From Thermodesulfobacteriota bacterium (GTDB lineage Bacteria > Desulfobacterota > Desulfobacteria > Desulfobacterales > Desulfatirhabdiaceae): a DNA stretch of 64,000 bases. Positions 31,089-50,699 of this stretch are shown here, piece after piece. Location: NCBI GenBank assembly GCA_040755275.1, contig JBFMBE010000002.1, positions 4,180 to 68,179 on the forward strand. Reading direction: 5' to 3'. Position 1 is the first letter of the stretch; each line of letters begins with the position of its first letter. Position numbers and translations under genes: made by a program. Below the pieces are notes generated by a model. It worked only from the letters and a program-made list of their open reading frames with translations. It was not told the origin of the DNA and made no database searches.

Positions 31089-31410
31089 GATGATGGTCTC
31101 GCCAAAAGGAGCTTTTTCCGGTGCTTTTCGTAAATGACGGGCATCAGCGGGGAGGCTGGGTAAGCCTTTTGAGCTTGCTGCGAAAAAGGTTCCCCAGTCA
31201 CCCCGCGACTCGACAGAGACTTCCTGACTTGTTGCGACGCCATCAAACTTGAGCAGCCCCATCTTGTGAAATCGGGCGGATGGTCCAAAGAGAAACGATG
31301 ATTGGATGTAATACAACGCAATGTTTTTCAAAAGAAATGGCTTGAAGCTGGCCCGGCCGATCCAGCGATCTCCGACTGCATCAAACAGTTTCCGCATCCC
31401 TCGCCATGGC
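31089..31410. repeat. composite interspersed repeat (X-proximal, Y, Z-like and inverted X-distal modules)
   Basis: 31089-31185 aligns to 44987-45085. 31185-31245 carries GGTTCCCCAGTCACCCCGCGACTCGACAGAGACTTCCTGACTTGTTGCGACGCCATC. The inverse of 31300-31410 aligns at ~70% by eye to 45083-45165. The last part overlaps the 3' end of the mvhD ORF. Confidence 0.7.
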
Positions 31411-31852
31411 AGGCCGTCATGATGGAGGGTGCGATTCCGGTTTTGACCATTCGTCTCATCGGGCCGAGGGCTTCCACCGTCTGGCAGACGTAGCGGGCTG
31501 TGTCCGCAAATTTGGTGGATTCGGCGGATGAAATCCAGGAAAAATGCAGTCTTCCCGGTTCGATGCCCGTATGCTCCAGCAGGTTTTTCAGCAAGGCGAA
31601 CTTGCGGCGGGCGTAGAAATTCCCTTCGATGTAGTGACAATCCCCGGGATGGCATCCCGATATCCATACCCCATCCGCGCCCTGCATGAAGGCGCTCAAG
31701 ATGAATTTCGGGCTGACCCGTCCGCTGCAAGGCACACGGATGACCCGGATGTAGGGGGGATACTCCAATCGGCTTACGCCCGCAAGGTCTGCGGCACCAT
31801 ACGTACACCAGTTACACAAGAATGCGACGATTTTCGGCTTCCAGTCAGTCAT
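31328..31852 (-). CDS. mvhD: MvhD-family (methyl-viologen-reducing hydrogenase delta subunit-like) [2Fe-2S] protein, third copy
   Basis: ATG 31852 (MTDWKPKIVAFLCNWCTYGAADLAGVSR...VPCSGRV...GADGVWISGCHPGDCHY) lies within track ORF 31328..31942. The last ~25 codons read into repeat-derived sequence. Confidence 0.85.
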   Translation of the reverse strand: MTDWKPKIVAFLCNWCTYGAADLAGVSRLEYPPYIRVIRVPCSGRVSPKFILSAFMQGADGVWISGCHPGDCHYIEGNFYARRKFALLKNLLEHTGIEPGRLHFSWISSAESTKFADTARYVCQTVEALGPMRRMVKTGIAPSIMTACHGEGCGNCLMQSEIAGSAGPASSHFF

Positions 31853-32012
31853 GCATTTCTCCCGGTTGGTTTCGAACGTCTTTGGTTGGTCATTGGCTTG
31901 TAACGAGGCACTGTGTGTCGTGCCCCAGGACTTCTGCAACATCCTCAGTTCCTATGGATGGATGGCAGGGGATGCGCAATATCAATTCCTATTGATGCAC
32001 CCCCTGGATATG

Positions 32013-32738
32013 TCAACTGTTCAGAATTCCCTCGATGACCGAGGTGAACGGACGGGTCATTTTCCGAAGGGCCAGATGGCGGGTAAGGTCGATCGGGCCT
32101 GAATCCGCGACGGCATGCTCGAAGCTCAGTTTCGGATCGAAGGGGGTGAGGTAAATGACACGAACGTCGTCCGGATCCACCAGAACGGCTTTCGGGAATT
32201 TCTTGCGTACTTCGGCAATCCGCTGATCGGCCAGCTTGCGGACCTTGTCTCGATCGCCGAAGGTCATAGCGCCGGTAGGACAGCTCTGCACACAGGCGGG
32301 CAGCAACCCGTTGTGAACCCGGTCGTTACACATGTCGCATTTGGCGAGCGTTCCGTCTTCCGATTTTCGAGGAATGTGGTACGGGCAGGACGCGATGATG
32401 TCATCGGCCTTCAGGAACCGGGTTTCTGCCGAATAGAGTACGGCGCCGGTTGCCGGGTCCGTATAGATGGCTCCGGGCTCGCCTGCCGTGTCCTGACAGG
32501 GGGGTGATATACAATGGCGGCACTGTTCCGGAAAAAAGAGCCAGTACAATCGGTTGTCCACCACCGTTTCCCGCATGCGGACGAGTTTGTAGGTATTGAA
32601 GGAAAGATCGGCCGGGTTTTCGTACGTGCCGCGATTCTTCGTGATTTCGGCCGGAAGATCGTGCCACTGTTTGCAGGCCACCTGGCAGCCCCTGCAAGCC
32701 GTGCATAGGGTCGTATCGATCAAGAATGCTTTGTCCAT
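32013..32738 (-). CDS. fdhB: formate dehydrogenase iron-sulfur (beta) subunit, no membrane anchor
   Basis: 241 aa with 4Fe-4S ferredoxin motifs (CTACRGCQVACK, CRHCISPPC, CDMC...CVQSCP). Sits immediately downstream of fdhA. Confidence 0.9.
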   Translation of the reverse strand: MDKAFLIDTTLCTACRGCQVACKQWHDLPAEITKNRGTYENPADLSFNTYKLVRMRETVVDNRLYWLFFPEQCRHCISPPCQDTAGEPGAIYTDPATGAVLYSAETRFLKADDIIASCPYHIPRKSEDGTLAKCDMCNDRVHNGLLPACVQSCPTGAMTFGDRDKVRKLADQRIAEVRKKFPKAVLVDPDDVRVIYLTPFDPKLSFEHAVADSGPIDLTRHLALRKMTRPFTSVIEGILNS

Positions 32739-32752
32739 TCAGACACCTCCCT

Positions 32753-35700
32753 TCATTTCTTCGAAACGTTCGCCATGAACGTCTTGGTTTCCGGAATTCG
32801 GGTGTTGGAATCTCCAGCGAATGGCGTCAGCACATTGGCGCTTTCCTCGGTTCCAGACGCCGGCCAGCGCCATCCAAAATTGTAGGGAAGTCCGATTGGG
32901 TAGACGAGGGTGCCTGCGATTTTCATCGGCTTGAACCGCTTGGTGACGATAGCTGTGGCTTCCATGGAGCCTCTGGCGGTGCTGACGATGACCCGCTCGC
33001 CGTTCTGAATGTGTTTGAGTGCTGCAAGCTCCTCGCTCATTTCGACGAAAACCTGGGGCTGAAGTTCCAGCAGCCAGGGCTGCGGTCGTGTCATGAGGCC
33101 CGTCTGCCAGTGTTCGGACACCCGATAGGTCGAGCAGACGTAGGGATATTTGGGATCGCAGGTTGCAGCAAACCGGTCTGCATCTGTCGAGTAAATCGGC
33201 ATCGTGGGGCTGTGCAGCTGGTCGCTCAATGGATTCTTTTCAATGGGGCATTCCATGGCTTCGTAGTGCTCGGGGAAGGGGCCGTCGTTCAGCCCTGGGC
33301 CAAAAAGCTGGCCAAAGCCATGCAAGGTCATGATGAAGGGATGTTTTCCGTTCGGATTGGGTTTGCCGTCGGCATCGGCCAGCGGGGGTGCTGGTCCGTC
33401 CGGGACATCTCCGACCCATTTGCCGTTTTCCCACTTGATCACCCATCGTTTCGCACAGGAGGGCTGTCCCTTCAAATCGACGGATGCACGGTTATAGAGA
33501 ATCCGGCGGTTGACCGGCCAGGCCCAGGCAAATTCCGGGTAGAGCCCGATCTGGTTGGCGGCGTCATCCGTCTTGCGACGGGCGGACATGTTTCCGGCAT
33601 CCGTATAACTGCCGGAATATATCCAGCAACCGCATGCCGTGCTGCCGTCGGCCTGAAGCAGGGCGAAGGTAGGCACCTGTTTTCCGGCCTTGTATTCCGT
33701 ATCACCGATCTTGATGTCTCGGGTGAAGGTGCCGTTGATGATCTTGGCGACCTTGTGGGAATCGAATTGATGGCCGGTCCTGTAGTCCCATTTGAGGTTC
33801 ACAATTGGATCCAGAAAGACGCCACCGTCCTTCTGGTAAATTTCCTTCAGTTTGAGACCGAGCTCCAGAATGATGTCGCCGTCCGGACGGCTGTTGCCGA
33901 GCGGTTTGGGTCCTGCATAACGCCACTGCATCCAGCGTCCGCTGTTGGTAATGCTGCCTTCCTTTTCCACCGAAACGCAGGCCGGTAGCATGAAGACTTC
34001 GGTGCCGATGTTTGTCGGTTTCATGCCGGGGCCCTTCCAGAAGGAGCCGGTTTCGTTGTCGAAAAGGTTGACGTTGACCATCCAGTCGAGATTGCACAGG
34101 GCTTTGCGAACCTTGTTGGCGTTTGCGCCGCTGCAGGCCGGGTTCATTCCCCAGGCGAACAAGCCCTTGATGGTGCGCTGGTACATTTGATCGAAGAGAT
34201 CGAGCCAGGAATAGGATTTTCCGTCGTCCAGCTTGGGCATCCAGGGATACCCGAACTCGTTTTCGGCCGTCGCTGTCTCGCCGAACATGGCCTTGAGATA
34301 GCTCACGATGTACTTGGGTTCGTTCTGCCACCAGTTGAGGCTCAAGGGATCCTTGCTTTGGGGCCGGCGTTTGAGAACGTCTTCCAGTTTTTGAAATTTC
34401 GCCGTGGGAACGCCGACATACCCGGGCCAGATGTGGAACAGAAGACCGTGGTCCGTCGAGCCCTGAACATTGGATTCACCACGGAGCGCATTGACACCAC
34501 CGCCTGCGATACCGACATTGCCCAGCAGCAGCTGAATGATGGCCATCGTCCGAATGATCTGAACGCCGACGGTGTGCTGGGTCCACCCCATGGCGTAGAG
34601 AATGGTTCCGGCCTTATCCGGTTTCCCGGTGGCAGCAAAGGCTTTGTAAACGGCCAGCAAATCCGCTTCGCTCGTACCGGTGACCGAGGAGACGGTCTTC
34701 AGGTCATAGCGAGAATAATGCTTCTTCAGCTGATTGAATACACAAAGCGGATCCTTCAGGCTCATATCCCGTTTGGGCTTGCCGTCTGCATCGAGTTGGA
34801 AAGCCCATTTCGACTTGTCGTATGAACGGGTTTTCGGGTCGAAGCCTGCAAACAGGCCTTTTTCAAATTTGTATTCCGGATTGAGGATGAAAGCGGCGTT
34901 GGTGTAGTGCAGTACATATTCCGTCTGAAACAGGCTATTTTGAAGAATGTAGTGGATCATGCCACCCAGAAAGGCGATATCGGATCCGGATCGTACCGGA
35001 GCGTAGATATCCGCCTTGGATGAGGTCCGGGTGAACCGCGGATCGACGCTGACAAGAGTTGCCCCGTTTCGCTGGGCTTCGGTAACCCATTTGAATGAAA
35101 TGGGGTGGGTCTCTGCGGCGTTGCTGCCCATGACGAGAATACAGTCGCTGTTCTTCATGTCGATGAAGTGATTGGTCATGGCACCCCGGCCATAGGTTTC
35201 GGCCAGGGCCGGAACCGTACTGCTGTGGCAGAGGCGGGCCTGATGTTCGATATAGACGAGGCCGAGGGCTCGCATCAGGGCCTGGTATATCCAGCATTCC
35301 TCGTTGTCGAAGGCGGCGCTTCCGACAGATGCAATGGCCTCCGTGCGGTTGACGAGCTGACCGGTGGCATTGGTTTTGATAAAGGTGGCGTCCCGGGTTT
35401 TCTTCACGCGCTGAGCGATGCGGTCAATGGCCCAATCCCAGGAGACTTCTTCCCATTTGTCGGAAAACGGCGCCCTGTACATCGGGGTCAACAGCCGGTT
35501 TGTGTTTTCGGCGAGTCCTTTTAAACCGGCCCCTTTCGAACAAAGTGCCCCCCGATTGATGACATGATCCGGATCGCCTTCGATGTTGATGATGCGACCG
35601 TCTCCTTTCTTGCTCGTGTGGACCAGCGCTCCGCATCCGACCCCGCAGTAACAACAAATCGTCGTGGTTTCTTTGGCATATCGGGTTTTGAGCATTTGGG

Positions 35701-35803
35701 CATGGCTCTGAACCGGTTTTAAATCGAATCCCAACGTTCCGACCGCCATTCCGGCAACCATAGCGCCCGAGATCTTCAGAAAATCTCTTCGATCGACCTT
35801 CAT
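32753..35803 (-). CDS. fdhA: Tat-exported molybdo/tungstopterin formate dehydrogenase catalytic subunit (Cys type)
   Basis: ATG 35803 is preceded by GGAGG. Twin-arginine signal MKVDRRDFLKISGAMVAGMAVG. N-terminal [4Fe-4S] motif CCYCGVGCG. At the active site it has ARLCHSS where Sec-type enzymes carry U, so the ORF is uninterrupted. Confidence 0.95.
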   Translation of the reverse strand: MKVDRRDFLKISGAMVAGMAVGTLGFDLKPVQSHAQMLKTRYAKETTTICCYCGVGCGALVHTSKKGDGRIINIEGDPDHVINRGALCSKGAGLKGLAENTNRLLTPMYRAPFSDKWEEVSWDWAIDRIAQRVKKTRDATFIKTNATGQLVNRTEAIASVGSAAFDNEECWIYQALMRALGLVYIEHQARLCHSSTVPALAETYGRGAMTNHFIDMKNSDCILVMGSNAAETHPISFKWVTEAQRNGATLVSVDPRFTRTSSKADIYAPVRSGSDIAFLGGMIHYILQNSLFQTEYVLHYTNAAFILNPEYKFEKGLFAGFDPKTRSYDKSKWAFQLDADGKPKRDMSLKDPLCVFNQLKKHYSRYDLKTVSSVTGTSEADLLAVYKAFAATGKPDKAGTILYAMGWTQHTVGVQIIRTMAIIQLLLGNVGIAGGGVNALRGESNVQGSTDHGLLFHIWPGYVGVPTAKFQKLEDVLKRRPQSKDPLSLNWWQNEPKYIVSYLKAMFGETATAENEFGYPWMPKLDDGKSYSWLDLFDQMYQRTIKGLFAWGMNPACSGANANKVRKALCNLDWMVNVNLFDNETGSFWKGPGMKPTNIGTEVFMLPACVSVEKEGSITNSGRWMQWRYAGPKPLGNSRPDGDIILELGLKLKEIYQKDGGVFLDPIVNLKWDYRTGHQFDSHKVAKIINGTFTRDIKIGDTEYKAGKQVPTFALLQADGSTACGCWIYSGSYTDAGNMSARRKTDDAANQIGLYPEFAWAWPVNRRILYNRASVDLKGQPSCAKRWVIKWENGKWVGDVPDGPAPPLADADGKPNPNGKHPFIMTLHGFGQLFGPGLNDGPFPEHYEAMECPIEKNPLSDQLHSPTMPIYSTDADRFAATCDPKYPYVCSTYRVSEHWQTGLMTRPQPWLLELQPQVFVEMSEELAALKHIQNGERVIVSTARGSMEATAIVTKRFKPMKIAGTLVYPIGLPYNFGWRWPASGTEESANVLTPFAGDSNTRIPETKTFMANVSKK

Positions 35804-35876
35804 GGGACAACCTCCTTTTCGTTCGGGTAAGACTACTCCCAATATACAGTAGGTTGCGTGTTTGCGTTTCCGCTGA

Positions 35877-36812
35877 TCAATTCACCACGGGCCTTGGCAA
35901 AAGCCCAGCCCGTTCGGCGATCTCCGGAACCCGATGTTCCCATTCGATGGCCATCAGATGAACCCCGGCCACCCCCTTCATCGTCTTGAATTCCTCGATC
36001 TGCTCCAGGCAGAACCGGATCCCCTCTTCGGCCACCTTGGTCTTTTCCACCCCCTTCAGCCGTTTGATGAGCGATTCGGGCACATCCATGCCCGGGACCT
36101 GCTTGGCCATGTAGTTGGCCATACCGACACTCTTCATCGGTGTGACTCCGGCCAGGATATAGCATTTTTCCGTCAGCCCCATGTCGTTGGCCTGCCGGAT
36201 GAACTCCCGGAACCGTTCCATGTTGTAGATGCACTGGGTCTGAATGAAATCGGCGCCTGCGGCGATTTTCTTGGCGAGGCGGTAGACGCGGAATTCATAA
36301 GGTTCCGCGAACGGATTGGATGCGGCTCCGATGAAGAGTTTGGGCGGCACGTCGATGGGCTCGCCGTTGAAGAATTTCCCTTCATCCCGCATCGTTTTGG
36401 CAAGGGAGATGAGCTGCATCGAATCGATGTCGTAAACGTTCTTCGCTTGGGGATGGTTGCCGAATTTCTGATGGTCGCCGGAGAGGCACAGCATGTTGCG
36501 GACACCCATGGCGTAAACCCCCAGGATGTCCGACTGCATGGCCAGCCGGTTGCGATCCCGGCAGACCATCTGAAAATTTGGCTCGACCCCTTCCTGTACC
36601 ATGATGGCCGATGCAGCCCAGCTCGACAGGCGAACGACCGCCGTCTGATTGTCCGTCACGTTGACGGCGTCTACCACTCCTTTCAGATGAAGGAATTTCT
36701 CGCGGAGATGCTCGACATTTGCACCTTTGGGCGGACCGCATTCTCCGGTGAGGGCAAAGTGACCGGCCTTGAGTACTTTTTCCAGATTGCTTCCCGATTT
36801 GAGATCATCCAT
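35877..36812 (-). CDS. metF: methylenetetrahydrofolate reductase, acetogen/sulfate-reducer type
   Basis: 311 aa (LEKVLKAGHFALTGECGPPKG...AVNVTDNQ...). The start overlaps the metV stop by 8 nt. Confidence 0.92.
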   Translation of the reverse strand: MDDLKSGSNLEKVLKAGHFALTGECGPPKGANVEHLREKFLHLKGVVDAVNVTDNQTAVVRLSSWAASAIMVQEGVEPNFQMVCRDRNRLAMQSDILGVYAMGVRNMLCLSGDHQKFGNHPQAKNVYDIDSMQLISLAKTMRDEGKFFNGEPIDVPPKLFIGAASNPFAEPYEFRVYRLAKKIAAGADFIQTQCIYNMERFREFIRQANDMGLTEKCYILAGVTPMKSVGMANYMAKQVPGMDVPESLIKRLKGVEKTKVAEEGIRFCLEQIEEFKTMKGVAGVHLMAIEWEHRVPEIAERAGLLPRPVVN

Positions 36813-37479
36813 GTTGGATCAATTCCTCCCTTCGGCTTCTTCGAAGTCCTCCATCCCGGGCGGTCTGCCAGTTCTTGGCGGGGAACACCTGAAGCAGATC
36901 GTTCAAGCGGCCCAGCTCCATTTTCTTACGAACGATCTTGTCCCAGATGCAATCGACATTCTTGGCGATTTCGCACTTGCCGTGATCCGATCCCCCGCAG
37001 GGACCGTTCATGAGACTCTTGGAGCAGCGGGCGATCGGGCACAGTCCGTCGAAATGATGGATGATGCATGTGCCGCAGCCGGCACAGCGCTCTTCCCAGA
37101 TGCCGTGGGCGACGGCTCCTCCAAAGAAGGTCGTGTTGACTGCCGGATAGAATCGCTGGTCTGGATAGGCTTCCGACAGAAACTGGGGCCCAACGCCGCA
37201 GGCCATGGAGATGACGGCGTCATAGTCGTTGACGCGGTCCTGAATCATGGCGATGTATTCCGGGTCGCACTGGCGCTCGAGCAGGGTCTCATCTACGTGC
37301 AGAGGACGGCCTTCCTTCTTGCGGGCGATTTTCAGGGTGGCGGCCAAAATCTGAACTTCCTTGAGACCGCCGACATTGCAGACGGTCACACAGCCCTTGC
37401 ATCCCACCACGAGGATGTTCGAGCAGTCCTTCACCATATCCAGAATTTCATGAATGGATTTACGGTCGGCGACGATCAT
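36805..37479 (-). CDS. metV: methylene-THF reductase small Fe-S/zinc-ribbon subunit MetV
   Basis: ATG 37479 lies within track ORF 36805..37725. Cys-rich (VVGCKGCVTVCNVGG; CAGCGTCIIHHFDGLCPIARCSKSLMNGPCGG). ATGA overlap with the upstream mvhD stop. Confidence 0.88.
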   Translation of the reverse strand: MIVADRKSIHEILDMVKDCSNILVVGCKGCVTVCNVGGLKEVQILAATLKIARKKEGRPLHVDETLLERQCDPEYIAMIQDRVNDYDAVISMACGVGPQFLSEAYPDQRFYPAVNTTFFGGAVAHGIWEERCAGCGTCIIHHFDGLCPIARCSKSLMNGPCGGSDHGKCEIAKNVDCIWDKIVRKKMELGRLNDLLQVFPAKNWQTARDGGLRRSRREELIQHG

Positions 37480-41003: not shown

Positions 41004-41024
41004 ATGCATTCCTTTCTCATGGCT

Positions 41025-41866: not shown

Positions 41867-44800
41867 TTATGCCTCAGCTGCGGCCCTGGTGCAGATGGCC
41901 GCCTCGATCTGCTGCTTTCGGAAATGCTTCATGTCGATGGCTTGCTGCGGACAGGATGCCGCACACACGCCGCACCCCTTGCACAGGGCCGACAGGTTCT
42001 CCGCGCGGTAGCCCTTGCCGATCACCTGTTTCAGGCGGATGGCTCCAAAGGAGCAGGAAGCCTCGCACAGCCCGCAGCCGATGCACTTGTCTTCGTCCAC
42101 CACCGAAACGATCGGTGCGATATCGATGGTCTCCTGAACGAGAAGGGTGGCTGCACGCGCTGCGGCCGCCTGTCCCTGGGCGATCGATTCGTCGATGGAC
42201 TTGGGATAGTGCGCCAAGCCGCATACAAACACCCCATCCGTCGAAAAATCCACGGGTCGCAGCTTGACGTGCGCCTCCAGAAAGAAACCGTCTTCGGTCA
42301 GCGGCACCTTGAGCATCTTGGCCAGAGTTTCTTGACCATCGGGCGCCACGATGGCCGTTGCGAGATGGAGATGGTCCACGGGAATTTCGATGGACCGATC
42401 CAGGATGGGGTCATGCACCATGACGAGAAGACCGCCATTGGTGTCGGCCTGCACCTGCGGCTTGTGATCGAGGTCGTATCGGATGAAGATCACCCCGAGC
42501 TCGCGCGCCTTCTGGTACAATGCCTCCCGCTGGCCGTAGGAGCGGATGTCCCGATACAGAACGAAGACCCGAAGATCGGGTTTTGCGGTCTTCCAGCGGA
42601 TGGCGCTCTGCAGGGTCGCCGTGCAGCAAATGCGAGAGCAGGCCGGCCGCTGGGGTTCCCGGGAGCCGACACATTGGATGTAGGCGATGCTGGTTGCGGA
42701 TGCGAGAGCGGCCGGATCGGTTTCGAATCGCTCGTCGAGTTCGTGCCAGATGGTCACCCGCGGATGACTCCCGTAAAAGTATTCGGCGGGTCTGAAGGGA
42801 CGAGCGCCGGTGGCCACGACGACAGCTCCGTGTTCGATGCTCTGAAGCCCATTCGGGGTTTGCACCGTTGTGGTGAAATTGCCGACGAATCCCTCGATCG
42901 ATTGAATGGACGACTGGTTCAGCACCCGAATGGCCGGATGTGTGCTGACCCGCTGGATCATTTCCTCCAGAAGCGGCGCCACCGCATGCCCGTTCCAGCT
43001 CTGATAGACAAGCCTGGCGTTCCCGCCGAGCGTCGTATCCCGTTCGATCAGTACGGTTTCGAATCCCTGATCCGCAAGACCCAGTGCAGCACTCATCCCG
43101 GCCGCACCGCCTCCGATCACCAGGGCATTCTTGTTGACGGCAATGGCCAGCGGTTCGATCGGTTCGAGCAGCCGTGCCTTGGCGACAGCCATGCGAACCA
43201 GGTCCTTGGCCTTCCGGGTGGCTTCCTCCGGCTGGTTCTGGTGGACCCAGGCGTTCTGGTCCCGGATATTGGCAAATTCGAAGAGGTAGGGATTGAGCCC
43301 TGCCTCCTGAATGGTTTCCTGAAACAGCGCCTCGTGGGTGCGGGGAGTACAGGCCGCAACGACGACACGATTCAGCCGGTTGTCGACGATGGCCTGGCGG
43401 ATGGTCGCCTGAGTGTCTGCGCTGCAGGTGAACAGATTCGTGGTGGCAAAGGCGACATCGGGAAGGGTCTCGACGTATGCCTTGACGGCCTGCACATCAA
43501 CGACACCGGCGATGTTGGTTCCGCAATGGCAGACGAACACCCCGATACGGGGAGTATCTTCCAACGCCAGCGGTTCGGCCCGTTTTTGTTCCGTGGGGAT
43601 GGCCGTGTTTCGAACGTTGGAAAGCAGTCCTGCCGCACCGGCCGCAGCGGCCGAAGCCTCCATGACGGTCTGGGGGATGTCTTTTACGCCGGCGAAGGCG
43701 CCGCAGACGAAAACCCCGGGACGGGACGATGTCACCGGGCTGAAGGGAAGGGTTTGGCAGAAGCCGTCTCCATCGAGTCGGACGTCGAGTTTTTGCGCAA
43801 GTTCGCGGGTTGCGGCATCGATTTCCATGCCGACGGAGAGAACGATGAGATCGAAAACCTCATCCTGTGGAAGCCCGGAATCGGTGACATAGGTGACTTT
43901 GAGCCGGTCGTCCGTTTCGGGTTCGATCGAATGCACCCGCGCCCGGATGAAGCGGACCCCGCTCTCCTCCCTGGCCCGATTGTAGGTCTGCTCAAAGCCT
44001 TTGCCATGGGTGCGCATGTCCATATAGAAAATGGCCGTATCCAGATCGGCTCCGGCGTGTTCCTTGGCAACCAGGGCTTCCTTAATGGCATACATGCAGC
44101 AGACCCCCGAACAGTAGGGATGACTGTCCTCCCGGATGTCTCGGGATCCGATGCACTGAAGCCATGCAATCTTATGGGGTTGTTGGTGATCCGACGGCCG
44201 GACGAGGTGACCTTCGAATGGACCCGAAGCGCTCAGGATCCGCTCGAACTCCATACTCGTCACCACGTTCTTCAGGGTGCCGTAGCCATAACGAACGATG
44301 GAACCAGGATCGAAGGCGTGAAATCCGGGTGCGAGAACCACCGCACCGACATCGATGGTTTGGGTCGTTTCCTGCTGGGAGAAATCCACGGCGTTTGCCG
44401 GACAGAATTTCTCGCAAGCGCGGCATTTGCCGTTCTTGAAATAAATGCAATGATCGGCGTCGATGGCGTACTTGAGCGGGACGGCCTGGGGATAGAGAAC
44501 ATAAGCCGCCTTGCGGTTGTTCAATCCCTGGTTGAATGCGTTAGGCACTTTCTTGGGGCATTTTTCGGCGCACTTCCCGCAGGCGATGCATTTTTCGTTG
44601 TCGATATATCGGGGCCGGTTCCGGAGGATTGCGGTGAAACGCCCCGCCTCGCCTTCGACGGATTGAACGTCACACAGCGTATGGATCCGGATGTTCTTGT
44701 GTCGTCCGACCTCGACGAGCTTCGGAGAGAGAATGCACATCGAGCAGTCGTTCGTGGGAAAGGTCTTGTCGAGGGTGCTCATCACCCCGCCGATGGCGGG

Positions 44801-44923
44801 TTTGCTTTCGACCAGATGAACCAGATATCCGGCATTGGCCAGATCCAGGGAGGCCTGGATGCCGCCGATACCTCCGCCGACAACCAGTACACTTCCGATG
44901 GGTAACTGCAGGGCTTCGAGCAT
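41867..44923 (-). CDS. hdrA: giant double-module HdrA-like flavoprotein (copy 2)
   Basis: The track ORF is 41867..44941. I start it at MLEALQLPIGSVLVVGGGIGG (ATG 44923), which has the same GGAAAGGAAC RBS as copy 3. Same architecture as copy 1. Confidence 0.9.
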   Translation of the reverse strand: MLEALQLPIGSVLVVGGGIGGIQASLDLANAGYLVHLVESKPAIGGVMSTLDKTFPTNDCSMCILSPKLVEVGRHKNIRIHTLCDVQSVEGEAGRFTAILRNRPRYIDNEKCIACGKCAEKCPKKVPNAFNQGLNNRKAAYVLYPQAVPLKYAIDADHCIYFKNGKCRACEKFCPANAVDFSQQETTQTIDVGAVVLAPGFHAFDPGSIVRYGYGTLKNVVTSMEFERILSASGPFEGHLVRPSDHQQPHKIAWLQCIGSRDIREDSHPYCSGVCCMYAIKEALVAKEHAGADLDTAIFYMDMRTHGKGFEQTYNRAREESGVRFIRARVHSIEPETDDRLKVTYVTDSGLPQDEVFDLIVLSVGMEIDAATRELAQKLDVRLDGDGFCQTLPFSPVTSSRPGVFVCGAFAGVKDIPQTVMEASAAAAGAAGLLSNVRNTAIPTEQKRAEPLALEDTPRIGVFVCHCGTNIAGVVDVQAVKAYVETLPDVAFATTNLFTCSADTQATIRQAIVDNRLNRVVVAACTPRTHEALFQETIQEAGLNPYLFEFANIRDQNAWVHQNQPEEATRKAKDLVRMAVAKARLLEPIEPLAIAVNKNALVIGGGAAGMSAALGLADQGFETVLIERDTTLGGNARLVYQSWNGHAVAPLLEEMIQRVSTHPAIRVLNQSSIQSIEGFVGNFTTTVQTPNGLQSIEHGAVVVATGARPFRPAEYFYGSHPRVTIWHELDERFETDPAALASATSIAYIQCVGSREPQRPACSRICCTATLQSAIRWKTAKPDLRVFVLYRDIRSYGQREALYQKARELGVIFIRYDLDHKPQVQADTNGGLLVMVHDPILDRSIEIPVDHLHLATAIVAPDGQETLAKMLKVPLTEDGFFLEAHVKLRPVDFSTDGVFVCGLAHYPKSIDESIAQGQAAAARAATLLVQETIDIAPIVSVVDEDKCIGCGLCEASCSFGAIRLKQVIGKGYRAENLSALCKGCGVCAASCPQQAIDMKHFRKQQIEAAICTRAAAEA

Positions 44924-44986
44924 ATGGGTTCCTTTCCACATAAGTCAAGGGTTGGGATCCAGAAGACATAAATCAGAATGTCTATC

Positions 44987-45330
44987 GATGATGGCCTCGC
45001 AACAAGTCGATTTTCCCGTGCTTTTCGTAAATGTCGGGCATCAGCGGGGTGGCTGGGGAAGCCTTTTGAGACTGCTGCGAAAACGTGTTTGAAGCCGCCG
45101 GATATCGTTGGATCGGGTGGAGATGCTTCATCCATATTTGTTTGAAAAACATCCTGTTGCAACTCAGCAATTCTGTATTCCAAGTTTGGCTATCCGCCCG
45201 ATCCTACGAGATCGGGCGGCTGAGTTTTTTCGCAGCATCGAAAAAGGTTCCCCAGTCACCCCGCGACTCGACAGAGACTTCCTGACTTTTTGCGAGGCCA
45301 TCATCGATGATGGCCTCGCAACACGTCCGG
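44987..45330. repeat. largest composite of the interspersed repeat family (X, Z hairpin, Y, head-to-head junction)
   Basis: GATGATGGCCTCGCAACAAGTC...(X)...CCGCCCGATC-ctacga-GATCGGGCGG (10-bp hairpin)...GGTTCCCCAGTCACCCCGCGACTCGACAGAGACTTCCTGACTTTTTGCGAGGCCATCATC|GATGATGGCCTCGCAA. Lies between hdrA copy 3 and copy 2. Confidence 0.85.
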
Positions 45331-45445: not shown

Positions 45446-48400
45446 TCATCCGGCATCGCTCAACGCGTAGATCTGAGCGAAAATCTGATCGTTGTCGAAC
45501 CCTTTCAAGTGAATGGCTCCGGATCGGCAAGAAGCCACACACAGGCCGCATCCCTTGCACAGCACCGGATTGATCTCGGCTTTGCCCGGGAAAAACCTTG
45601 CCTTCTCGTCGATGAACGAAGGGGCCGAGTAAGGGCAGATCGAGACGCAGACACCGCAGGAACTGCACAGGGCCGGATTGACCTTGGCCACGTTTCCGCT
45701 GGTCAGGATCGTTTTGCGGGCAAGCAGCGTAACGGCACAGGAGGCGGCCGCTCTTGCCTGAGCGATGGATTCGTCGATGGGCTTTGGATAGTGGGCGAGA
45801 CCGCAGAGAAAGACCCCGTCGGTCGCGAATTCCGAAGGTCCCAGTTTGGCGTGTTTCTCGACGAAGAAACCGTCTTCGTTGAGCGGAACCTTGAAAAACT
45901 TGGCCAAGGCTTCGCTTTTCGGCGGAACGATGGCCGTAGCCAGCACCAACAGGTCAGCGTCGATCGTGATGGCCTGATTCAGGATTGGATCCAGGACGGT
46001 GACGAGTCTGCGGCCGTTTTCGACCTGAACGACCGGTTTGTTGTTGAGGCTATACCGGATAAAGATCACGCCTGCCTCCCGGGCCTCCTGGTAGAGGAGT
46101 TCCTTTTCGCCGTATGTCCGGATATCCCGATAGAGAATGAACACGCGGGAATCGGGGTTTTTCCGCTTGAGGTGAATGGCGTTGTCGATGGAGTGGGTGC
46201 AGCACACCCGGGAGCAGTACATGCGTTCGGGAATGCGGGAGCCTACACACTGGATGAAAACGGCCGTTTGAAGGGTTTCGAGCGCGGGGTCGTTGTCGAT
46301 GAGTTTGCGATCGAGTTCGAGGCTGGTCAGAATTCGAGGGTCCTGGCCGTAGCCGTACTCCGTTGGGACAAGGGTGGATGCCCCAGTGGCAATGATGGCT
46401 ACCCCATGTTCGAGCGTTTCTTCCGTTCCGCCTGAGGACTCGAGCCGGGTCTTGAAATTGCCCACGAACCCCTGAACGGAGGCAATGGTCGTGTTCAGAT
46501 AGACGGTGATCCGTGGATCGCATTCCACTTGGTGGATCATGTCGGTCAGTGCAGCCGAAATGTCTTCACCTCTTGCCGTGCGGTACAGGTTTCGGGCCTG
46601 ACCGCCCAGCTCGCCCGATTTCTCGACGATGTGGGTTGCATAGCCCTGGGAAGCGAGGCTCGATGCGGCAGCTATTCCGGCGATTCCACCACCGATGACG
46701 AGGGCCGTCTGGTTGACTTCGAGGGTGGCCTCTTCGAGCGGCTCCATCAGCGCCACCTTCTCGACAGCCATCCGGACCAGGTCCTTCGCCTTTTCGGTGG
46801 CCTCCGTCGGGTTCTGTCGATGTACCCAGGAATCGTGGTTTCGGATGTTGGTCATTTCGAAAAGATATTTGTTCAAACCGGCGGCCATCAGGGTTTCCTG
46901 AAAAAGCGGTTCGTGCGTCTTCGGGGTACAGGCGGCAACGACCACGCGGTTCAATCCTTTTTCACGGATCAGCTCGGCGATGGTGTTTTGGGTGTCCTGC
47001 GAGCAGGAATAGAGATTGTCCGTTGCGAATTCCACAAAGGGGAGGGTCTTCACATACTGCGTTACGGCAGGGACATCGACCACGCCAGCGATATTGATGC
47101 CGCACTTGCATACAAAAACACCGATGGCCGGTCGTTGGCCGATGACATTGGTCTGTGGGATGATCTCGGGCTTTTCCGTCAGGGAGTTGCGGCTTGCTGT
47201 CAGGATGGCGCCTGCAGATGCGGCTGCAGCGCCGGCATCGATGACGGTCTGAGGGATATCGCGAGGTCCCAGAAAGGCGCCGCAGGCGAAAATGCCTTTT
47301 CGGCTCGTTTCGACGGGTGCAAACGAGGTGCTGCTGCAGAAGGAACCGCTCGTGAGCTCGATGCCGAGGGTTTCGGCCAGATTTCGTGTTTCGAGGGATG
47401 TTTCCAGACCGATCGACAGAACGATCATGCTGAAGGTTTCGGTCTGGATGGCGCCGTCTTCCGTGATGTAGCGGACCTCGACGTCATCTTCCGGAGCTGG
47501 TGCGATGGTGTGGATGCGGCTTCGGATGAAGCGAACGCCCTGTTTGGTCTTGGCCGTTTCGTAGCAGCGCTCGAATTCCTTGCCGTGGGTGCGCATGTCC
47601 ATGAAGAAAACGGCGCAGTCGAGGTCATAGGGAGCATGTTCCTTGGCGATGACCGCTTCCTTGATGGCGTACATGCAGCAGACGCTTGAGCAATAGGGGT
47701 TCGAATCCTCCCGCACGTCTCGGGATCCGATGCATTGCAGCCAGGCGATGCTTTTGGGTTCCAGATGATCGGACGGCCGGACGAGGTGGCCTTCGAATGG
47801 ACCCGATGCACTCAGGATCCGCTCGAACTGCATGCTGGTGACGACGTTTTTGAGACGGCCGAAGCCGTACCGATCGAGATGGGTCGGATCGTAGGGATGG
47901 AAGCCGGGTGCCAGAATGACGGCACCGACAGCAACGACGTCGATGGATTCTGTTTGGGAAAAATCGACGGCACCTGCCGGGCAGAATTTTTCACAGGCAC
48001 GGCATTTGCCGTTCTTGAAGTAAATGCAGTGATCGGCATCGATGGCGTACTTGAGCGGAACGGCCTGAGGATAGAGGACATAGACCGCCTTGCGGTTGTC
48101 CAGCCCCTGGTTGAAAGCGTTGGGTATCTTCTTGGGACATTTTTCGGCGCACTTTCCGCAAGCGATGCATTTGGCGGTGTCGATGTAGCGGGGCCGATAC
48201 CGCAGTGTTACGCTGAAATTTCCGGCCTCGCCCGCAACGTTCTGGATAGCGCACAGGCTGTGGATACGGATATTCTTGTGCCGTCCGACCTCCACGAGCT
48301 TGGGCGAGAGGATGCACATCGAGCAGTCGTTTGTGGGAAAGGTCTTGTCGAGGGTGCTCATCACCCCGCCGATGGCGGGTTTGTTTTCGACCAGATGAAC

Positions 48401-48502
48401 CAGATATCCGGCATTGGCCAGATCCAGGGATGCCTGGATACCGCCGATGCCGCCGCCGACAACCAAGACGCTTCCGATAGGGGACTGCGGGGCTTCGACC
48501 AT
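45446..48502 (-). CDS. hdrA: giant double-module HdrA-like flavoprotein (copy 3)
   Basis: 1018 aa. The N-terminal third is very similar to copy 2 (MVEAPQSPIGSVLVVGGGIGGIQASLDLANAGYLVHLVENKPAIGGVMSTLDKTFPTNDCSMC...). Same motif set as copies 1 and 2. Confidence 0.92.
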   Translation of the reverse strand: MVEAPQSPIGSVLVVGGGIGGIQASLDLANAGYLVHLVENKPAIGGVMSTLDKTFPTNDCSMCILSPKLVEVGRHKNIRIHSLCAIQNVAGEAGNFSVTLRYRPRYIDTAKCIACGKCAEKCPKKIPNAFNQGLDNRKAVYVLYPQAVPLKYAIDADHCIYFKNGKCRACEKFCPAGAVDFSQTESIDVVAVGAVILAPGFHPYDPTHLDRYGFGRLKNVVTSMQFERILSASGPFEGHLVRPSDHLEPKSIAWLQCIGSRDVREDSNPYCSSVCCMYAIKEAVIAKEHAPYDLDCAVFFMDMRTHGKEFERCYETAKTKQGVRFIRSRIHTIAPAPEDDVEVRYITEDGAIQTETFSMIVLSIGLETSLETRNLAETLGIELTSGSFCSSTSFAPVETSRKGIFACGAFLGPRDIPQTVIDAGAAAASAGAILTASRNSLTEKPEIIPQTNVIGQRPAIGVFVCKCGINIAGVVDVPAVTQYVKTLPFVEFATDNLYSCSQDTQNTIAELIREKGLNRVVVAACTPKTHEPLFQETLMAAGLNKYLFEMTNIRNHDSWVHRQNPTEATEKAKDLVRMAVEKVALMEPLEEATLEVNQTALVIGGGIAGIAAASSLASQGYATHIVEKSGELGGQARNLYRTARGEDISAALTDMIHQVECDPRITVYLNTTIASVQGFVGNFKTRLESSGGTEETLEHGVAIIATGASTLVPTEYGYGQDPRILTSLELDRKLIDNDPALETLQTAVFIQCVGSRIPERMYCSRVCCTHSIDNAIHLKRKNPDSRVFILYRDIRTYGEKELLYQEAREAGVIFIRYSLNNKPVVQVENGRRLVTVLDPILNQAITIDADLLVLATAIVPPKSEALAKFFKVPLNEDGFFVEKHAKLGPSEFATDGVFLCGLAHYPKPIDESIAQARAAASCAVTLLARKTILTSGNVAKVNPALCSSCGVCVSICPYSAPSFIDEKARFFPGKAEINPVLCKGCGLCVASCRSGAIHLKGFDNDQIFAQIYALSDAG

Positions 48503-48686
48503 AAGGGTTCCTTTCCAAAAAAATCAGGGGTTGGGATTCAGAAGTCAGATGTTTGAAGACAGAAGTCAGAACGACAATGGATATATCCATATAAACCGGA
48601 AACCCGTCTTGCACATGAATCGTGGAAATACATGGCTGTAAGGCCCCCTGTGGCCTATCGATGGGTTGTTCGTGACTTCGTCATCT

Positions 48687-48821
48687 GTGATGGCCTCGCA
48701 ACAATTCAGGCAGTCTTCGTCGAGCCTCGGGGTGACCGGGGAACCTTTCTTGCTGCTGCGAAAAAACTCAGCCACCCCGCGACTCGACAGAGACTTCCTG
48801 ACTTTTTGCGAGGCCATCATC
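48687..48821. repeat. interspersed repeat (two inverted GATGGCCTCGCAA termini flanking Y-type core)
   Basis: GTGATGGCCTCGCAACAATTCAGG...CTGCTGCGAAAAAACTCAGCCACCCCGCGACTCGACAGAGACTTCCTGACTTTTTGCGAGGCCATCATC. Lies between the hdrD-like gene and hdrA copy 3. Confidence 0.85.
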
Positions 48822-48831
48822 TATTATCAGG

Positions 48832-50139
48832 TCAATATCCCGGAAGATTCACTTCCTTGAGGTCGTCGGCGAGATAGGTGCGCTCGTTTTCGGCCAAGAT
48901 GCCCAACGACAGGGCGATGATCGTCCAGAGATGCACGGTGCGGTATTTCCCGTGGCCATAATGTTCGCCGAGCTCGTGAATCTGGGCATGGCAGTTGTGA
49001 CAGGGTGTGACGACATAGGAAGCGCCGGTTTTCATGATCTGTTCGTGTTTAAGCCTTCCGTAATGCAGCCTCGCTTCCTTGTATCCGTTCTGTAAATATC
49101 CACCCCCTCCGCCGCAGCAATAGTTGTTGCTCTTGTTGGGATAGGTATCGATGAAGTTTTCTTCGCCTACACAGGCGACGGTGACAAAGCGCAGATCGTC
49201 CGCGAGGGCGTCTCCCCAACCTTTGCGGATCTGATTACAGGGGTCCTGTACCGTGAACTTCACTTTCAAATCCTTGTTCCAGTCGGAGTTCACCTTGAGC
49301 TTTCCTTCCCGAATCCACCTGGCGTAGTACTGAACCATCGGTGCGATTTCGAGTCCGGTGTCGATCTTGTGTTTCTGGGCCCCTTTCCATACAGAAAACG
49401 TCGAATGGCCGCATTCGGTGTTGAGGTATACCTTGCATCCAAGGCTTTTAGCGGTCTGCAGGGTCAAGTTCGTGATCCGCTTCCATCCTTCGTCGTCCGC
49501 CAGGAACATGCAGTAGTTTTCACCCCCCCATCCGGTGCAGCTGTAAGTCCAATCGGCGCCGACGATATGCAGAATCTTCCACAGCGGTACCATTTCCTCC
49601 GGTTCGGTGACGGGTTCGCGGGAGTTCTGGCTCAGGAAGAAATGGGCGCCCTGCTTGTCGATCGGTGCCTGAAGATCTTCCCATCCAGGCTGATTGGCAC
49701 GCACCTCTTCGAGCATGTCCTGAACGACGAAGCGGAAATCCTCTTCTGGGGTTCCCATGGCGCTGCAACTATCGTTTCGGAGAGCCATGTCGCAGGAGCC
49801 TAAAATTCCTTTCGGACGCTTTTCCCGAGGCCAAAGCTTACGAGCTTCGTAAATGAGGGCCGCGATATCGATTTTCATGGGGCAGGCATGGGTGCAGCGA
49901 TAACACATGCTGCACAACCATACCCAGGGGTGTTCAGTGATTTCCTCATCAAGCCCCAGGACCGCCAGGCGCAGGAATTTCCGGGGGTCCATGTTCTCGA
50001 GGCCCGATGCCGGGCAGCCCGACGAGCAGGCGCCGCAGGTGAGACATAAATTCAGGTTGGCGTTCGGGACAATTTCCTTGACCCGGTCGATGAAGGTCGA
50101 AGTCTGTTCTCTGGGAATTCGAACGGTGTTTTCCGACAT
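48832..50139 (-). CDS. HdrD-like Fe-S oxidoreductase (2x[4Fe-4S] ferredoxin domain + two CCG domains; HdrC-HdrB fusion type), no TM
   Basis: 435 aa. CLTCGACSSGCP and CSMCYRCTHACP motifs. CCG-domain signatures (NNYCCGGGGG, TPCHNCH). SD AGGAGAA upstream of ATG 50139. Confidence 0.9.
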   Translation of the reverse strand: MSENTVRIPREQTSTFIDRVKEIVPNANLNLCLTCGACSSGCPASGLENMDPRKFLRLAVLGLDEEITEHPWVWLCSMCYRCTHACPMKIDIAALIYEARKLWPREKRPKGILGSCDMALRNDSCSAMGTPEEDFRFVVQDMLEEVRANQPGWEDLQAPIDKQGAHFFLSQNSREPVTEPEEMVPLWKILHIVGADWTYSCTGWGGENYCMFLADDEGWKRITNLTLQTAKSLGCKVYLNTECGHSTFSVWKGAQKHKIDTGLEIAPMVQYYARWIREGKLKVNSDWNKDLKVKFTVQDPCNQIRKGWGDALADDLRFVTVACVGEENFIDTYPNKSNNYCCGGGGGYLQNGYKEARLHYGRLKHEQIMKTGASYVVTPCHNCHAQIHELGEHYGHGKYRTVHLWTIIALSLGILAENERTYLADDLKEVNLPGY

Positions 50140-50153
50140 CTGGTTCTCCTTCT

Positions 50154-50699
50154 CTATAGGGGGGAATGATCGCAGGAATGCGTTTCGGTTTCGTGAATCG
50201 GGTAAGCGTCGCTTCGTTCGATGAGACCGCGAAAGACCATGCGAAGGTATTTTTCTTCGATGGGGGGAAAGTCCTCAGGGGGATCGGTCATGAAGGCTTC
50301 GGACTGATCGAATGAGGAATCTTCCGACGACAGGAGTGGTTCCGGTATCTCGATGGGAACGGAACGACTCTTCCATAGGATCGGTTGCAGCCGTTTTTTG
50401 TTGATGAGCCATCGGTCGCATTCGTCATGGGTACCGATGAAGGCGATGTGAAGACAATCCTCTTGCCGAAGGGTGATGAGGCGATAGCCGCAACCGAGGT
50501 CATACTTGAGGCAGTTTTTCAGGCGCTGCTCACCGCTTTTGGTCGCTTCGTGGAGGCAGTCGGGAATGCGGCGCTCCTGAATCAGTCTGGCAATGATTTC
50601 GTCGGCTTCCCGAGCGGCGATCTGGGCTTTGCGGTTTCCCTTGCGGAGGGTATCGAGCTGTTTTTCAAATAAGGGGTCGCGATGAATCAGACGGATCAA
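50154..50699 (-). CDS. hypothetical protein with RelE/ParE-toxin-like N-terminal domain and acidic/proline-rich C-terminal extension
   Basis: 181-aa ORF with a TTG start and an AGAGGA SD. The N-terminal ~100 aa fit the RelE/ParE pattern by eye (FEKQLDTLRK...KNCLKYDLGCGYRLITLRQEDCLHIAFIGTHDECDRW). The stop lies 14 nt before the hdrD-like start. Confidence 0.5.
   Translation of the reverse strand: MIRLIHRDPLFEKQLDTLRKGNRKAQIAAREADEIIARLIQERRIPDCLHEATKSGEQRLKNCLKYDLGCGYRLITLRQEDCLHIAFIGTHDECDRWLINKKRLQPILWKSRSVPIEIPEPLLSSEDSSFDQSEAFMTDPPEDFPPIEEKYLRMVFRGLIERSDAYPIHETETHSCDHSPL

Follow-up and report, generated by a model that had tools for sequence, protein, structure and literature searches.

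A metF-hdr gene cluster with three HdrA paralogues and an adjoining Tat-exported formate dehydrogenase in an uncultured Desulfatirhabdium-like sulfate reducer

The electron partners of the Hdr-type methylenetetrahydrofolate reductase (MTHFR) are an unresolved step in Wood-Ljungdahl pathway bioenergetics, for acetogens as well as for complete-oxidising sulfate reducers. This type IV enzyme, MetFV-HdrABC-MvhD, was proposed for Moorella from genetics and partial purification (Mock 2014, cited in PMC9430772), and pulldowns in S. ovata showed that MetVF interacts with HdrA, HdrB and MvhD (Kremp 2022, PMC9430772). The DNA considered here, a 64,000-nucleotide stretch referred to as the window (positions 4,180 to 68,179 of contig JBFMBE010000002.1, assembly GCA_040755275.1), belongs to an uncultured metagenome-assembled genome (MAG) of a Desulfatirhabdium-like sulfate reducer and carries at 31328-50699 a metV-metF pair flanked by an hdrD-like gene, three hdrA genes, three mvhD genes and the formate dehydrogenase genes fdhAB. 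An earlier note on this DNA had proposed that the products could form a much larger or modular bifurcating or confurcating machine in which the formate dehydrogenase takes part. The question raised by the locus is whether it encodes such a machine or a variant of the known reductase. The locus is probably an Hdr-type MTHFR that has grown by the accretion of modules, with FdhAB co-located. All of the kinds of component are already known, and the cluster is an unusual variant of a known, poorly understood enzyme system and not a new type of machine.

Gene identities were assigned by Pfam and NCBIfam profile searches, while two labels, RelE-like and winged helix-turn-helix (wHTH), called for structure prediction. 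The twelve open reading frames (ORFs), all on the minus strand, were found where the earlier note had placed them and, once identified by family and structure searches, proved to be the genes listed in Table 1. The core consists of hdrD, hdrA2, mvhD-wHTH, hdrA1, mvhD1, metV and metF. A cluster of the Hdr-type MetFV kind had been claimed, and the arrangement is as expected for one: PF02219 lies beside PF12225, with mvhD and hdrA directly upstream on the same strand. As in the Hdr-type MTHFR, translationally coupled metV-metF genes directly follow mvhD and a fused HdrA with two TrxR modules, a CCG-domain partner is present, and all of the products are soluble; transmembrane segments were predicted in none of the 12 and signal peptides in none but FdhA. 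A search of the PDB returned no solved MetFV-Hdr structure.

The cluster differs from those of Moorella and Sporomusa in that HdrB and HdrC are fused as an HdrD-like protein, one MvhD bears a wHTH domain, and there are three HdrA paralogues, not one. The HdrD-like protein is soluble and carries a 2x[4Fe-4S] ferredoxin domain at the N-terminus, together with a canonical CCG domain and a second region that is CCG-like but degenerate. It takes the place of separate HdrB and HdrC subunits, just as the earlier note had it, and fused HdrD in this role is common in Desulfobacterales. Matches to the TmcB, HmcF and DsrK models (E 1e-49 to 1e-32) were all far under the curated cutoffs.

The three HdrA proteins matched HdrA models with E values down to 1e-297, and each has two Pyr_redox/FAD modules, two GxGxxG motifs and two CxxxCC motifs. 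Mapped onto solved HdrA structures, each is an asymmetric, fused pseudo-dimer: the TrxR/FAD domain with its inserted 2x[4Fe-4S] ferredoxin domain corresponds to residues ~13-440, the N-terminal cluster domain of HdrA and the beginning of a second TrxR/FAD domain to residues ~446-625, and the C-terminal 2x[4Fe-4S] ferredoxin domain to residues ~883-1016. The second TrxR module lacks the inserted ferredoxin domain and the Cys-x2-Cys pair equivalent to Cys194/Cys197 is retained only in the N-terminal half, the same complementary loss that has been described for fused HdrAs, including that of Moorella (PMC9012536). The N-terminal TrxR module keeps an insertion that is missing from the HdrA of S. 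ovata. The residue equivalent to the flavin-N5 lysine (Lys409, motif CCMYAxK) is lysine in the first module of all three proteins; at the second module HdrA1 has K, HdrA2 has Q and HdrA3 has D, and the residue is constant within each clade.

HdrA had been described as doubled in size relative to the characterised complex. This does not hold, since the HdrA of Hdr-type MTHFR is already a fused two-TrxR protein (PMC9430772; PMC9012536), with 942 aa (101 kDa) and two TrxR modules in S. ovata and 1487 aa (162.8 kDa) with a GltD insert in M. thermoacetica (PMC9430772). The window HdrAs are smaller than that of Moorella and are devoid of the GltD/NAD(P)H insert; PF14691 was detected in ~1484-aa relatives and in none of the three. 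The name HdrL, which denotes an HdrA/GltD fusion of ~1480 aa, was also rejected for these proteins of 1018-1024 aa without the module. The HdrL of Desulfobacterium autotrophicum is such a protein, HdrA with a glutamate-synthase-like NADH module, of about 1480 aa.

Nor has hdrA simply been triplicated, as had been supposed. Judged by identity and grouping, the three HdrAs are different paralogue classes with separate histories; the pairwise identities are 51% (A1/A2), 51% (A1/A3) and 61% (A2/A3). HdrA1 is sister to the ~1480-aa GltD-containing HdrA that stands beside mvhD-metV-metF in Desulfosarcina and its relatives and lacks their ~470-aa insert, the size difference mapping upstream of the first CxxxCC motif. 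HdrA2 is orthologous to the distal HdrA of clusters with two HdrAs (loci L001, L002, L071, L076 and L090). HdrA3 is composite: residues 300-1010 group with the HdrA of clusters linked to DsrC, residues 1-290 with HdrA2. At the DNA level hdrA2 and hdrA3 share 72-91% identity over the 5' untranslated region (UTR) and the first ~900 nt (~290 codons), and 47-75% over the remainder. A recent tandem triplication was ruled out on these grounds, as high identity is confined to this 5' segment. The homogenised UTR stretches lie at 44923-45010 (hdrA2) and 48485-48570 (hdrA3), and in a related locus, L083, HdrA2 and HdrA3 have almost the same N-terminus. The pattern points to recurrent gene conversion between two paralogues of different origin.

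All three of the claimed MvhD genes were identified as members of the FlpD/MvhD family, encoding MvhD-wHTH, MvhD1 and MvhD3. The proposed wHTH of the 251-aa protein is supported by its AlphaFold2 (AF2) model (pLDDT 88), which predicts an MvhD [2Fe-2S] domain, a helical linker and a C-terminal winged helix. With the MvhD of the methanogen Hdr-Mvh structure (5odc/5odh) the N-terminal domain shares 52% identity (TM score 0.83-0.84, rising to 0.88 against 8rvu); at the C-terminus the matches are the ArsR/SmtB-type structures of CzrA, SmtB and HlyU. Pfam wHTH matches were below threshold in this protein, and precomputed Pfam wHTH entries exist for many family members. Proteins of this ~252-aa family (P0179-P0298) are numerous and widespread in Desulfobacterota, including Desulfobacca acetoxidans and Syntrophobacter, and the literature searches returned no paper that treats them as a family.

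The class II benzoyl-CoA reductase (BCRII) of Geobacter metallireducens offers a comparison. BamE is a fused HdrA dimer with Lys280 at the bifurcating and Gln768 at the non-bifurcating FAD, BamD is an HdrBC fusion, and BamF is an MvhD lengthened by over 100 aa, the winged helix of which, as seen by cryo-EM, docks the BamGHI input module (bioRxiv 10.64898/2026.04.10.717634). As far as the description in the preprint allows, HdrD, HdrA2 (K/Q against K280/Q768) and MvhD-wHTH match BamDEF feature by feature. The lysine/non-lysine pattern of BamE recurs in HdrA2 (K/Q) and HdrA3 (K/D), and not in HdrA1 (K/K). The cluster departs from BCRII in having neither BamBC (W-AOR) nor a BamGHI module, in having MetFV as the catalytic partner, and in that its MvhDs carry cysteine where Bam has selenocysteine (Sec). 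A NuoF-like gene located 11 kb from the cluster, on the other strand, could be part of a bifurcating input module of the HydABC/BamGHI type, the type of partner docked by the BamF-like MvhD in BCRII.

The gene order recurs in relatives. L081 (Logan SRR29635772), whose MetF is identical to that of the window, reads hdrA2, mvhD-wHTH, hdrA1, mvhD, metV, metF, fdhA, fdhB; L082 (GCA_964549995.1, an uncultured Desulfatirhabdium MAG) reads 181-aa gene, hdrD, hdrA3, hdrA2, mvhD-wHTH, hdrA1, mvhD, metV, metF; and L083 (ENA ERZ511474) has the same series, with 138 and 41 nt at the hdrA3 junctions and a Tat-FdhA after metF. The orthologues of HdrA3, in the same position, are 92% (L082) and 88% (L083) identical to it. 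Since the order is the same in three other Desulfatirhabdium-like contigs, it is neither chance nor a misassembly. The neighbourhood check suggested in the earlier note thus found the synteny again in L081, L082 and L083, and the literature searches, including those on Desulfatirhabdium with Hdr and on MvhD with a winged helix, returned no paper that describes or characterises it. The assembly GCA_964549995.1 holds two Hdr-type metF clusters, L082 (CAZJXF010000030.1), with three HdrAs as in the window, and L076 (CAZJXF010000035.1), with two HdrAs and hdrD between mvhD and metV.

For the wider distribution, MetF served as the anchor with one genome per GTDB species. The best 80 loci were all Desulfobacterota-like, with MetF identities of 76-89%; nearly all had HdrA-MvhD-MetV-MetF, often with an HdrD-like gene upstream. 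Architectures were counted in the 48 loci with a full 10-kb flank upstream. A single HdrA of ~1480-1600 aa stood upstream of metVF in about 31, a single HdrA of ~920 aa in 6 and one of ~1010 aa in 4-5; two HdrAs with MvhD-wHTH between them occurred in 6 (about 12%), there was no HdrA within 10 kb in 3, and at no locus of the set was a third HdrA seen. The two-HdrA core with MvhD-wHTH is found in L001, L002, L071, L076, L079 and, in a cultured species, Desulfobacca acetoxidans (L090). Its common order is distal HdrA (K/non-K), MvhD-wHTH, proximal HdrA (K/K), MvhD, MetV, MetF, to which the window adds hdrA3 between hdrD and hdrA2 and fdhAB between metF and mvhD3; hdrD is upstream in the window, in contrast to L076, L078 and L079, where it lies between mvhD and metV. 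A metagenome scan with HdrA3 gave no further locus with three HdrAs and nothing above 73% identity, returning the DsrC-linked family instead. As far as these searches reach, the form with three HdrAs is confined to a narrow Desulfatirhabdium-like clade.

That DsrC-linked family is the source family of HdrA3 and MvhD3. Its clusters, very common in metagenomes, have the order HdrA-MvhD-Fer4_8-Fer4_22-(FAD/NAD-binding AsrB/PyrK-like)-DsrC and were complete in 31 of 80 loci (metagenomic loci L084, L086 and L092-L171, Desulfobacterales). Their HdrA, of ~940 aa, is apparently Sec-containing, as is their MvhD. The closest relatives of their first two genes are HdrA3 (62-73% identity) and MvhD3, which has a median identity of 69% to the MvhD that follows the HdrA3-like gene, whereas MvhD1 and MvhD-wHTH reach only 41-47%. 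HdrA3 and MvhD3 look like a cognate pair that now stands at opposite ends of the metF cluster, 13.5 kb apart. They have Cys where these relatives appear to use Sec, in line with the window proteins as a whole, which have Cys throughout and no Sec, and the Fe-S, FAD/NAD and DsrC genes of the DsrC-linked clusters are missing beside them. The Cys-rich tail of MvhD3 (CHGEGCGNC, 31328-31420), absent from its L002 orthologue, may bind an extra metal or cluster. In L002, the nearest relative with two HdrAs, the mvhD3 gene directly follows metF and no fdh genes are present, so that fdhAB looks like an insertion separating metF from mvhD3. The same L002 segment (10971-13269) continues after mvhD3 with a short HdrA-like ORF ending at an in-frame stop, possibly a Sec codon, and with an ORF of the AIR-synthase family that is a candidate selD (selenophosphate synthetase).

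The normal place of the HdrA3/MvhD3 family, beside DsrC and not MetF, gives reason to ask whether the genes belong together at all. The MTHFR might consist of hdrA1-mvhD1-metVF only, with HdrA2/MvhD-wHTH, HdrA3/MvhD3 and HdrD serving other systems such as DsrC and sulfite reduction and FdhAB unrelated. The 329- and 504-nt gaps with mobile repeats on either side of hdrA3, the lack of FdhAB in L002 and the occurrence of the RelE-fold gene in unrelated contexts would fit such independence. This account is nevertheless rather unlikely, because the distal HdrA and MvhD-wHTH are always directly upstream of the proximal HdrA-MvhD-MetVF, in at least 6 species including D. acetoxidans, because the three-HdrA order is kept in L083 with junctions of 41-138 nt, and because the repeated conversion between hdrA2 and hdrA3 shows long co-residence.

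The junctions bear on the same point. In gene order they are 14, 329, 504, 86, 15, 18, -4, -8, 73, 14 and 160 nt; the last, fdhB-mvhD3, shortens to 70 nt with the upstream ATG of MvhD3, and the mvhD-wHTH/hdrA1 gap becomes ~21 nt with the second ATG of hdrA1. All the distances that had been quoted for the cluster (the ATGA overlap, 8, 18, ~21, 14 and 73 nt) were correct, but the list had passed over the gaps of 329 and 504 nt that flank hdrA3. Two copies of a repeat resembling a miniature inverted-repeat transposable element (MITE) bracket hdrA3, with one arm of a 97-nt inverted repeat (86% complementary) at 48681-48777 and the other in the 504-nt gap. The possibility that hdrA3 is a MITE-bracketed insertion specific to the window was ruled out, as the L083 orthologue occupies the same position without repeats. 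A single transcription unit, which had been envisaged, cannot be assumed across the repeat-bearing gaps of this genome, the L083 counterparts of which measure no more than 138 and 41 nt. A shared direction is weak evidence on its own, since the minus-strand run is longer than the cluster (~29.1 to 61.6 kb). The consensus scan of the cluster for promoters and terminators gave no excess over shuffled controls; the terminator scan yielded one strong hairpin, at 45194-45219, with its T-run on the plus strand.

At the other extreme, all of the cytoplasmic products (three HdrA, three MvhD, HdrD and MetFV) could be assembled in one supercomplex with modules in series as in BCRII and with FdhAB as a separate periplasmic enzyme. 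Of the idea in the earlier note, this retains the cytoplasmic part. In BCRII, bifurcation modules are coupled and a second module is docked by a wHTH-bearing MvhD, which sets a precedent; hdrA and mvhD genes are present 3:3, with pairings backed by homology; the gene order is kept with tight spacing in L083; and the differing second-flavin residues (K/K, K/Q, K/D) suggest non-redundant roles. The relatives, however, vary freely, with 1, 2 or 3 HdrAs and with HdrD present, absent or moved, which is better accommodated by exchangeable modules. There is also a single HdrD and a single MetFV for three HdrAs, and the S. ovata proteins associate only loosely (PMC9430772), so one all-inclusive assembly is unlikely. 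A more specific version, in which the three HdrAs, each with its own MvhD (plain, wHTH-bearing or Cys-tailed), one HdrD and MetFV would carry out tandem bifurcation or confurcation, coupling methyl-tetrahydrofolate (methyl-THF) oxidation to the reduction of DsrC (sulfite) and ferredoxin while periplasmic FdhAB closes a formate cycle, is more doubtful still. If true, it would be the sulfate-reducer counterpart of the two-module class II benzoyl-CoA reductase.

FdhA scored 1458 bits against TIGR01553 (cutoff 814) and matched TAT_signal exactly at the Pfam gathering score. Its twin-arginine translocation (Tat) signal has an RRDFLK motif, a hydrophobic stretch and an AxA-like site, and the protein aligns from residue 1 to 1015, Tat signal included, with the periplasmic FdhA of D. 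vulgaris. The periplasm-targeted FdhAB that the earlier note placed 73 nt downstream of metF is therefore there, signal and spacing alike. FdhB is related to the beta subunits of D. gigas and D. vulgaris (E 1e-80). The window FdhA and the periplasmic enzymes of Desulfovibrio vulgaris and D. gigas (PDB 6sdr, 1h0h) are collinear over the full length and share the lack of a membrane or cytochrome subunit, none being encoded among the cluster genes. They differ in that Cys occupies the position of the catalytic selenocysteine (Sec192 in D. vulgaris FdhA), with no in-frame stop in the window gene, and in that the genes are embedded in a metF/hdr cluster. The fdhA gene follows metF in L081 and L083 as well.

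Because FdhA is Tat-exported, FdhAB cannot be a subunit of a cytoplasmic HdrA/MetF complex, and since the other products have neither signals nor transmembrane segments, direct coupling of the methyl branch to the formate dehydrogenase is topologically implausible. The proposal that FdhAB is part of one machine fails on the Tat signal, the collinearity with the D. vulgaris enzyme and the lack of signal peptides elsewhere. In its full form this proposal made FdhAB-MvhD3 a cytoplasmic formate input module for HdrA, like the methanogen Fdh-MvhD-Hdr system, so that formate would be coupled to methylene-THF reduction in a machine of 12 subunits. Several observations could be cited for it: mvhD3 directly follows fdhB and fdhA begins 73 nt after metF; methanogen Fdh-Hdr complexes with an MvhD adaptor exist, and one of them (7bkb) was among the structural matches; and hdrA/mvhD-fdhAB loci have been noted in D. 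autotrophicum. The methanogen arrangement, though, has a signal-less cytoplasmic FdhA and an F420-type FdhB, whereas the window FdhA has a canonical twin-arginine signal, and the best structural relatives of FdhAB were periplasmic FdhAB (6sdr, 1h0h) and FdnGH, with the F420-type FdhA weaker at ~1e-57 to 1e-65. The adjacency of fdhB and mvhD3 looks like the result of an fdhAB insertion, given that in L002 mvhD3 follows metF without Fdh and that MvhD3 is orthologous to the MvhD of DsrC clusters. A cytoplasmic formate module is accordingly very improbable. What survives of the larger machine is that the cluster is more modular than that of Moorella; the enlarged HdrA, the simple triplication and the inclusion of FdhAB do not.

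A functional link across the membrane is a different matter. For Thermacetogenium phaeum, a chain from MTHFR through Hdr and quinone to a periplasmic formate dehydrogenase (FDH) has been proposed, and there too the Hdr genes adjoin a Tat-exported FDH and the Wood-Ljungdahl pathway is run oxidatively (PMC6895022). The T. phaeum FDH is membrane-bound, has a quinone-reactive subunit and is encoded beside hdrBC, not metF, whereas the window FdhAB has no membrane subunit. In the Desulfatirhabdium-like host FdhAB would be a separate periplasmic enzyme, possibly co-expressed with the cluster, that oxidises formate outside the membrane and probably feeds cytochrome c or Hmc. The oxidative methyl branch ends in formate, so that the co-location of fdhAB could reflect co-regulation. 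Near the window start HmcB and the 16-haem cytochrome HmcA are encoded, both above the NCBIfam equivalog cutoffs, and the Hmc operon continues past the window start. They confirm a sulfate-respiring host and show an electron route of sulfate respiration that starts in the periplasm and offers FdhAB an acceptor. An ABC transporter at 23.2-26.9 kb was considered as TupABC, for tungstate uptake in support of the FDH, and was ruled out, being PstS/PstC/PstB-like.

From gene content and by analogy with the methanogen Hdr and the BamDEF module, we infer the following contacts, direction and acceptors for the Hdr-type MTHFR grown by accretion. MetF/MetV would exchange electrons with a fused HdrA through the MvhD [2Fe-2S] adaptor, and the Lys-flanked FAD of the first TrxR module would bifurcate or confurcate them. 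The high-potential branch would run from the TrxR-domain cluster to the CCG protein and on to a disulfide such as that of DsrC, or to a soluble carrier, and the low-potential branch would reach ferredoxin by way of the inserted ferredoxin domain. The enzyme of a complete oxidiser would physiologically work towards the oxidation of methyl-THF, the E0' of which is about -200 mV. Bifurcation would make this unfavourable oxidation feasible without NAD+, which fits HdrAs that have no GltD NAD(P)H module. A further partner would be docked by HdrA2 and MvhD-wHTH, an add-on resembling BamE/BamF; HdrA3 and MvhD3 would have been recruited as a pair from the DsrC-linked HdrA-MvhD family. The two pairs could act as alternative, mutually substituting modules, or could work in series or link up additional partners.

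Several points weigh against this account: 1) no stable Hdr-type MTHFR complex has been purified from S. ovata or Moorella, and the second substrate is not known (PMC9430772); 2) for a donor at -200 mV to reduce ferredoxin by bifurcation there would have to be an acceptor near 0 mV or higher, and none was identified in the locus; 3) the HdrD-like protein is so far below the DsrK, HmcF and TmcB cutoffs that DsrC as the acceptor is a guess; 4) the likeness to BamDEF was drawn from the text of a preprint; and 5) the MITE-bearing gaps of 329 and 504 nt around hdrA3 make co-transcription uncertain in this genome.

The Hdr-type MTHFR nevertheless emerges as a modular system. The metVF-proximal HdrA occurs in two forms, one without a GltD NAD(P)H insert and one with it, the latter being the form of most Desulfobacterales and of Moorella. 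About 12% of related loci have the BamE/BamF-like HdrA-MvhD(wHTH) module as well, and there the proximal HdrA downstream of it is free of the insert. At no locus did a second HdrA coincide with a GltD insert, and this mutual exclusion suggests that the add-on module may replace NAD(P)H as the point of electron entry or exit. The HdrA3/MvhD3 pair further suggests that the oxidation of methyl groups and the HdrA system linked to DsrC are connected at the level of the genome. The main use of the locus lies in sharper hypotheses on the electron partners of the Hdr-type MTHFR, and the two-HdrA core is present in at least one cultured species. Candidate test organisms are Desulfobacca acetoxidans and, provided that its genome has the cluster, Desulfatirhabdium butyrativorans.

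Table 1. Genes of the metF-hdr cluster, in order of transcription, followed by repeat copies and flanking genes (window coordinates)
Feature	Position	Strand	Assignment and remarks
RelE/ParE-fold protein, 181 aa	50154..50699	-	AF2 + Foldseek; opens the run, with hdrD 14 nt downstream
HdrD-like (HdrC-HdrB fusion)	48832..50139	-	Pfam CCG + Fer4_8
HdrA3, 1018 aa, fused two-TrxR	45446..48502	-	HdrA models; flavin-site residues K then D
HdrA2, 1024 aa, fused two-TrxR	41867..44941	-	HdrA models; flavin-site residues K then Q
MvhD-wHTH, 251 aa, BamF-like	41025..41780	-	FlpD match + AF2 model
HdrA1, 1021 aa, fused two-TrxR, metVF-proximal	37944..41009	-	HdrA models; K at both flavin sites
MvhD1, 149 aa	37476..37925	-	FlpD/MvhD family; stop overlaps metV start (ATGA)
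MetV, Fe-S subunit of MTHFR	36805..37479	-	PF12225, E 4e-33; 8-nt overlap with metF
MetF, methylene-THF reductase catalytic subunit	35877..36812	-	PF02219, E 5e-41
FdhA, Tat-exported molybdo/tungstopterin formate dehydrogenase catalytic subunit	32753..35803	-	TIGR01553 + TAT_signal
FdhB, Fe-S subunit	32013..32738	-	Fer4_11; no signal peptide, no transmembrane segment
MvhD3, Cys-rich tail CHGEGCGNC	31328..31852	-	FlpD/MvhD family; alternative start 31942
MITE-like repeat copy	48686..48821	.	within 329-nt hdrD-hdrA3 gap
MITE-like repeat copy/copies	44987..45327	.	within 504-nt hdrA3-hdrA2 gap
MITE-like repeat copy	31103..31247	.	downstream of mvhD3
Other MITE-like repeat copies	8865-8981, 18044-18065, 23096-23507, 51235-51256
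HmcB and HmcA	1123-3870	-	16-haem cytochrome (HmcA)
Hybrid sensor kinase	51336-53312	-	PAS-PAS-HisKA-HATPase-REC
Chemotaxis cluster	53604-60684	-	CheC-like, CheB, CheR
NuoF-like gene	61753-63600	+

The first gene of the run encodes a 181-aa product without Pfam or NCBIfam match, whose family consists of 58 hypothetical proteins. An AlphaFold model from a 47-sequence alignment (pLDDT 71, with a poorly predicted C-terminal extension) has in its N-terminal ~100 aa the beta-alpha-alpha-beta3 arrangement of the RelE/YafQ/YoeB/ParE fold (Foldseek TM score 0.70-0.76, target-normalised, E ~1e-3). The RelE-like label of the earlier note is thus supported, with moderate confidence, at the level of the predicted fold, and neither a sequence-family match nor an adjacent antitoxin goes with it, as there was no convincing small antitoxin-like ORF upstream. 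The gene is kept upstream of hdrD in L002, L082 and L083, and a distant homologue sits in an unrelated gene context.

The MITE-like repeats form an intergenic family with the terminus GATGATGGCCTCGCAA(A/C)AAGTC, which matches the window 12 times where 0 matches would be expected. They belong to no Rfam family, and the Rfam scan of the whole window returned three tRNAs and no other non-coding RNA. The hybrid sensor kinase lies directly upstream of the cluster, and weakly similar kinases or response regulators flank the metF-hdr clusters of L027, L045, L050, L051, L053, L063, L069, L073 and L090; the association may be a conserved regulatory link or may reflect generic kinase similarity only. 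Beyond the kinase, the minus strand carries the chemotaxis cluster, which includes a 990-aa protein with PAS domains and HEAT repeats.

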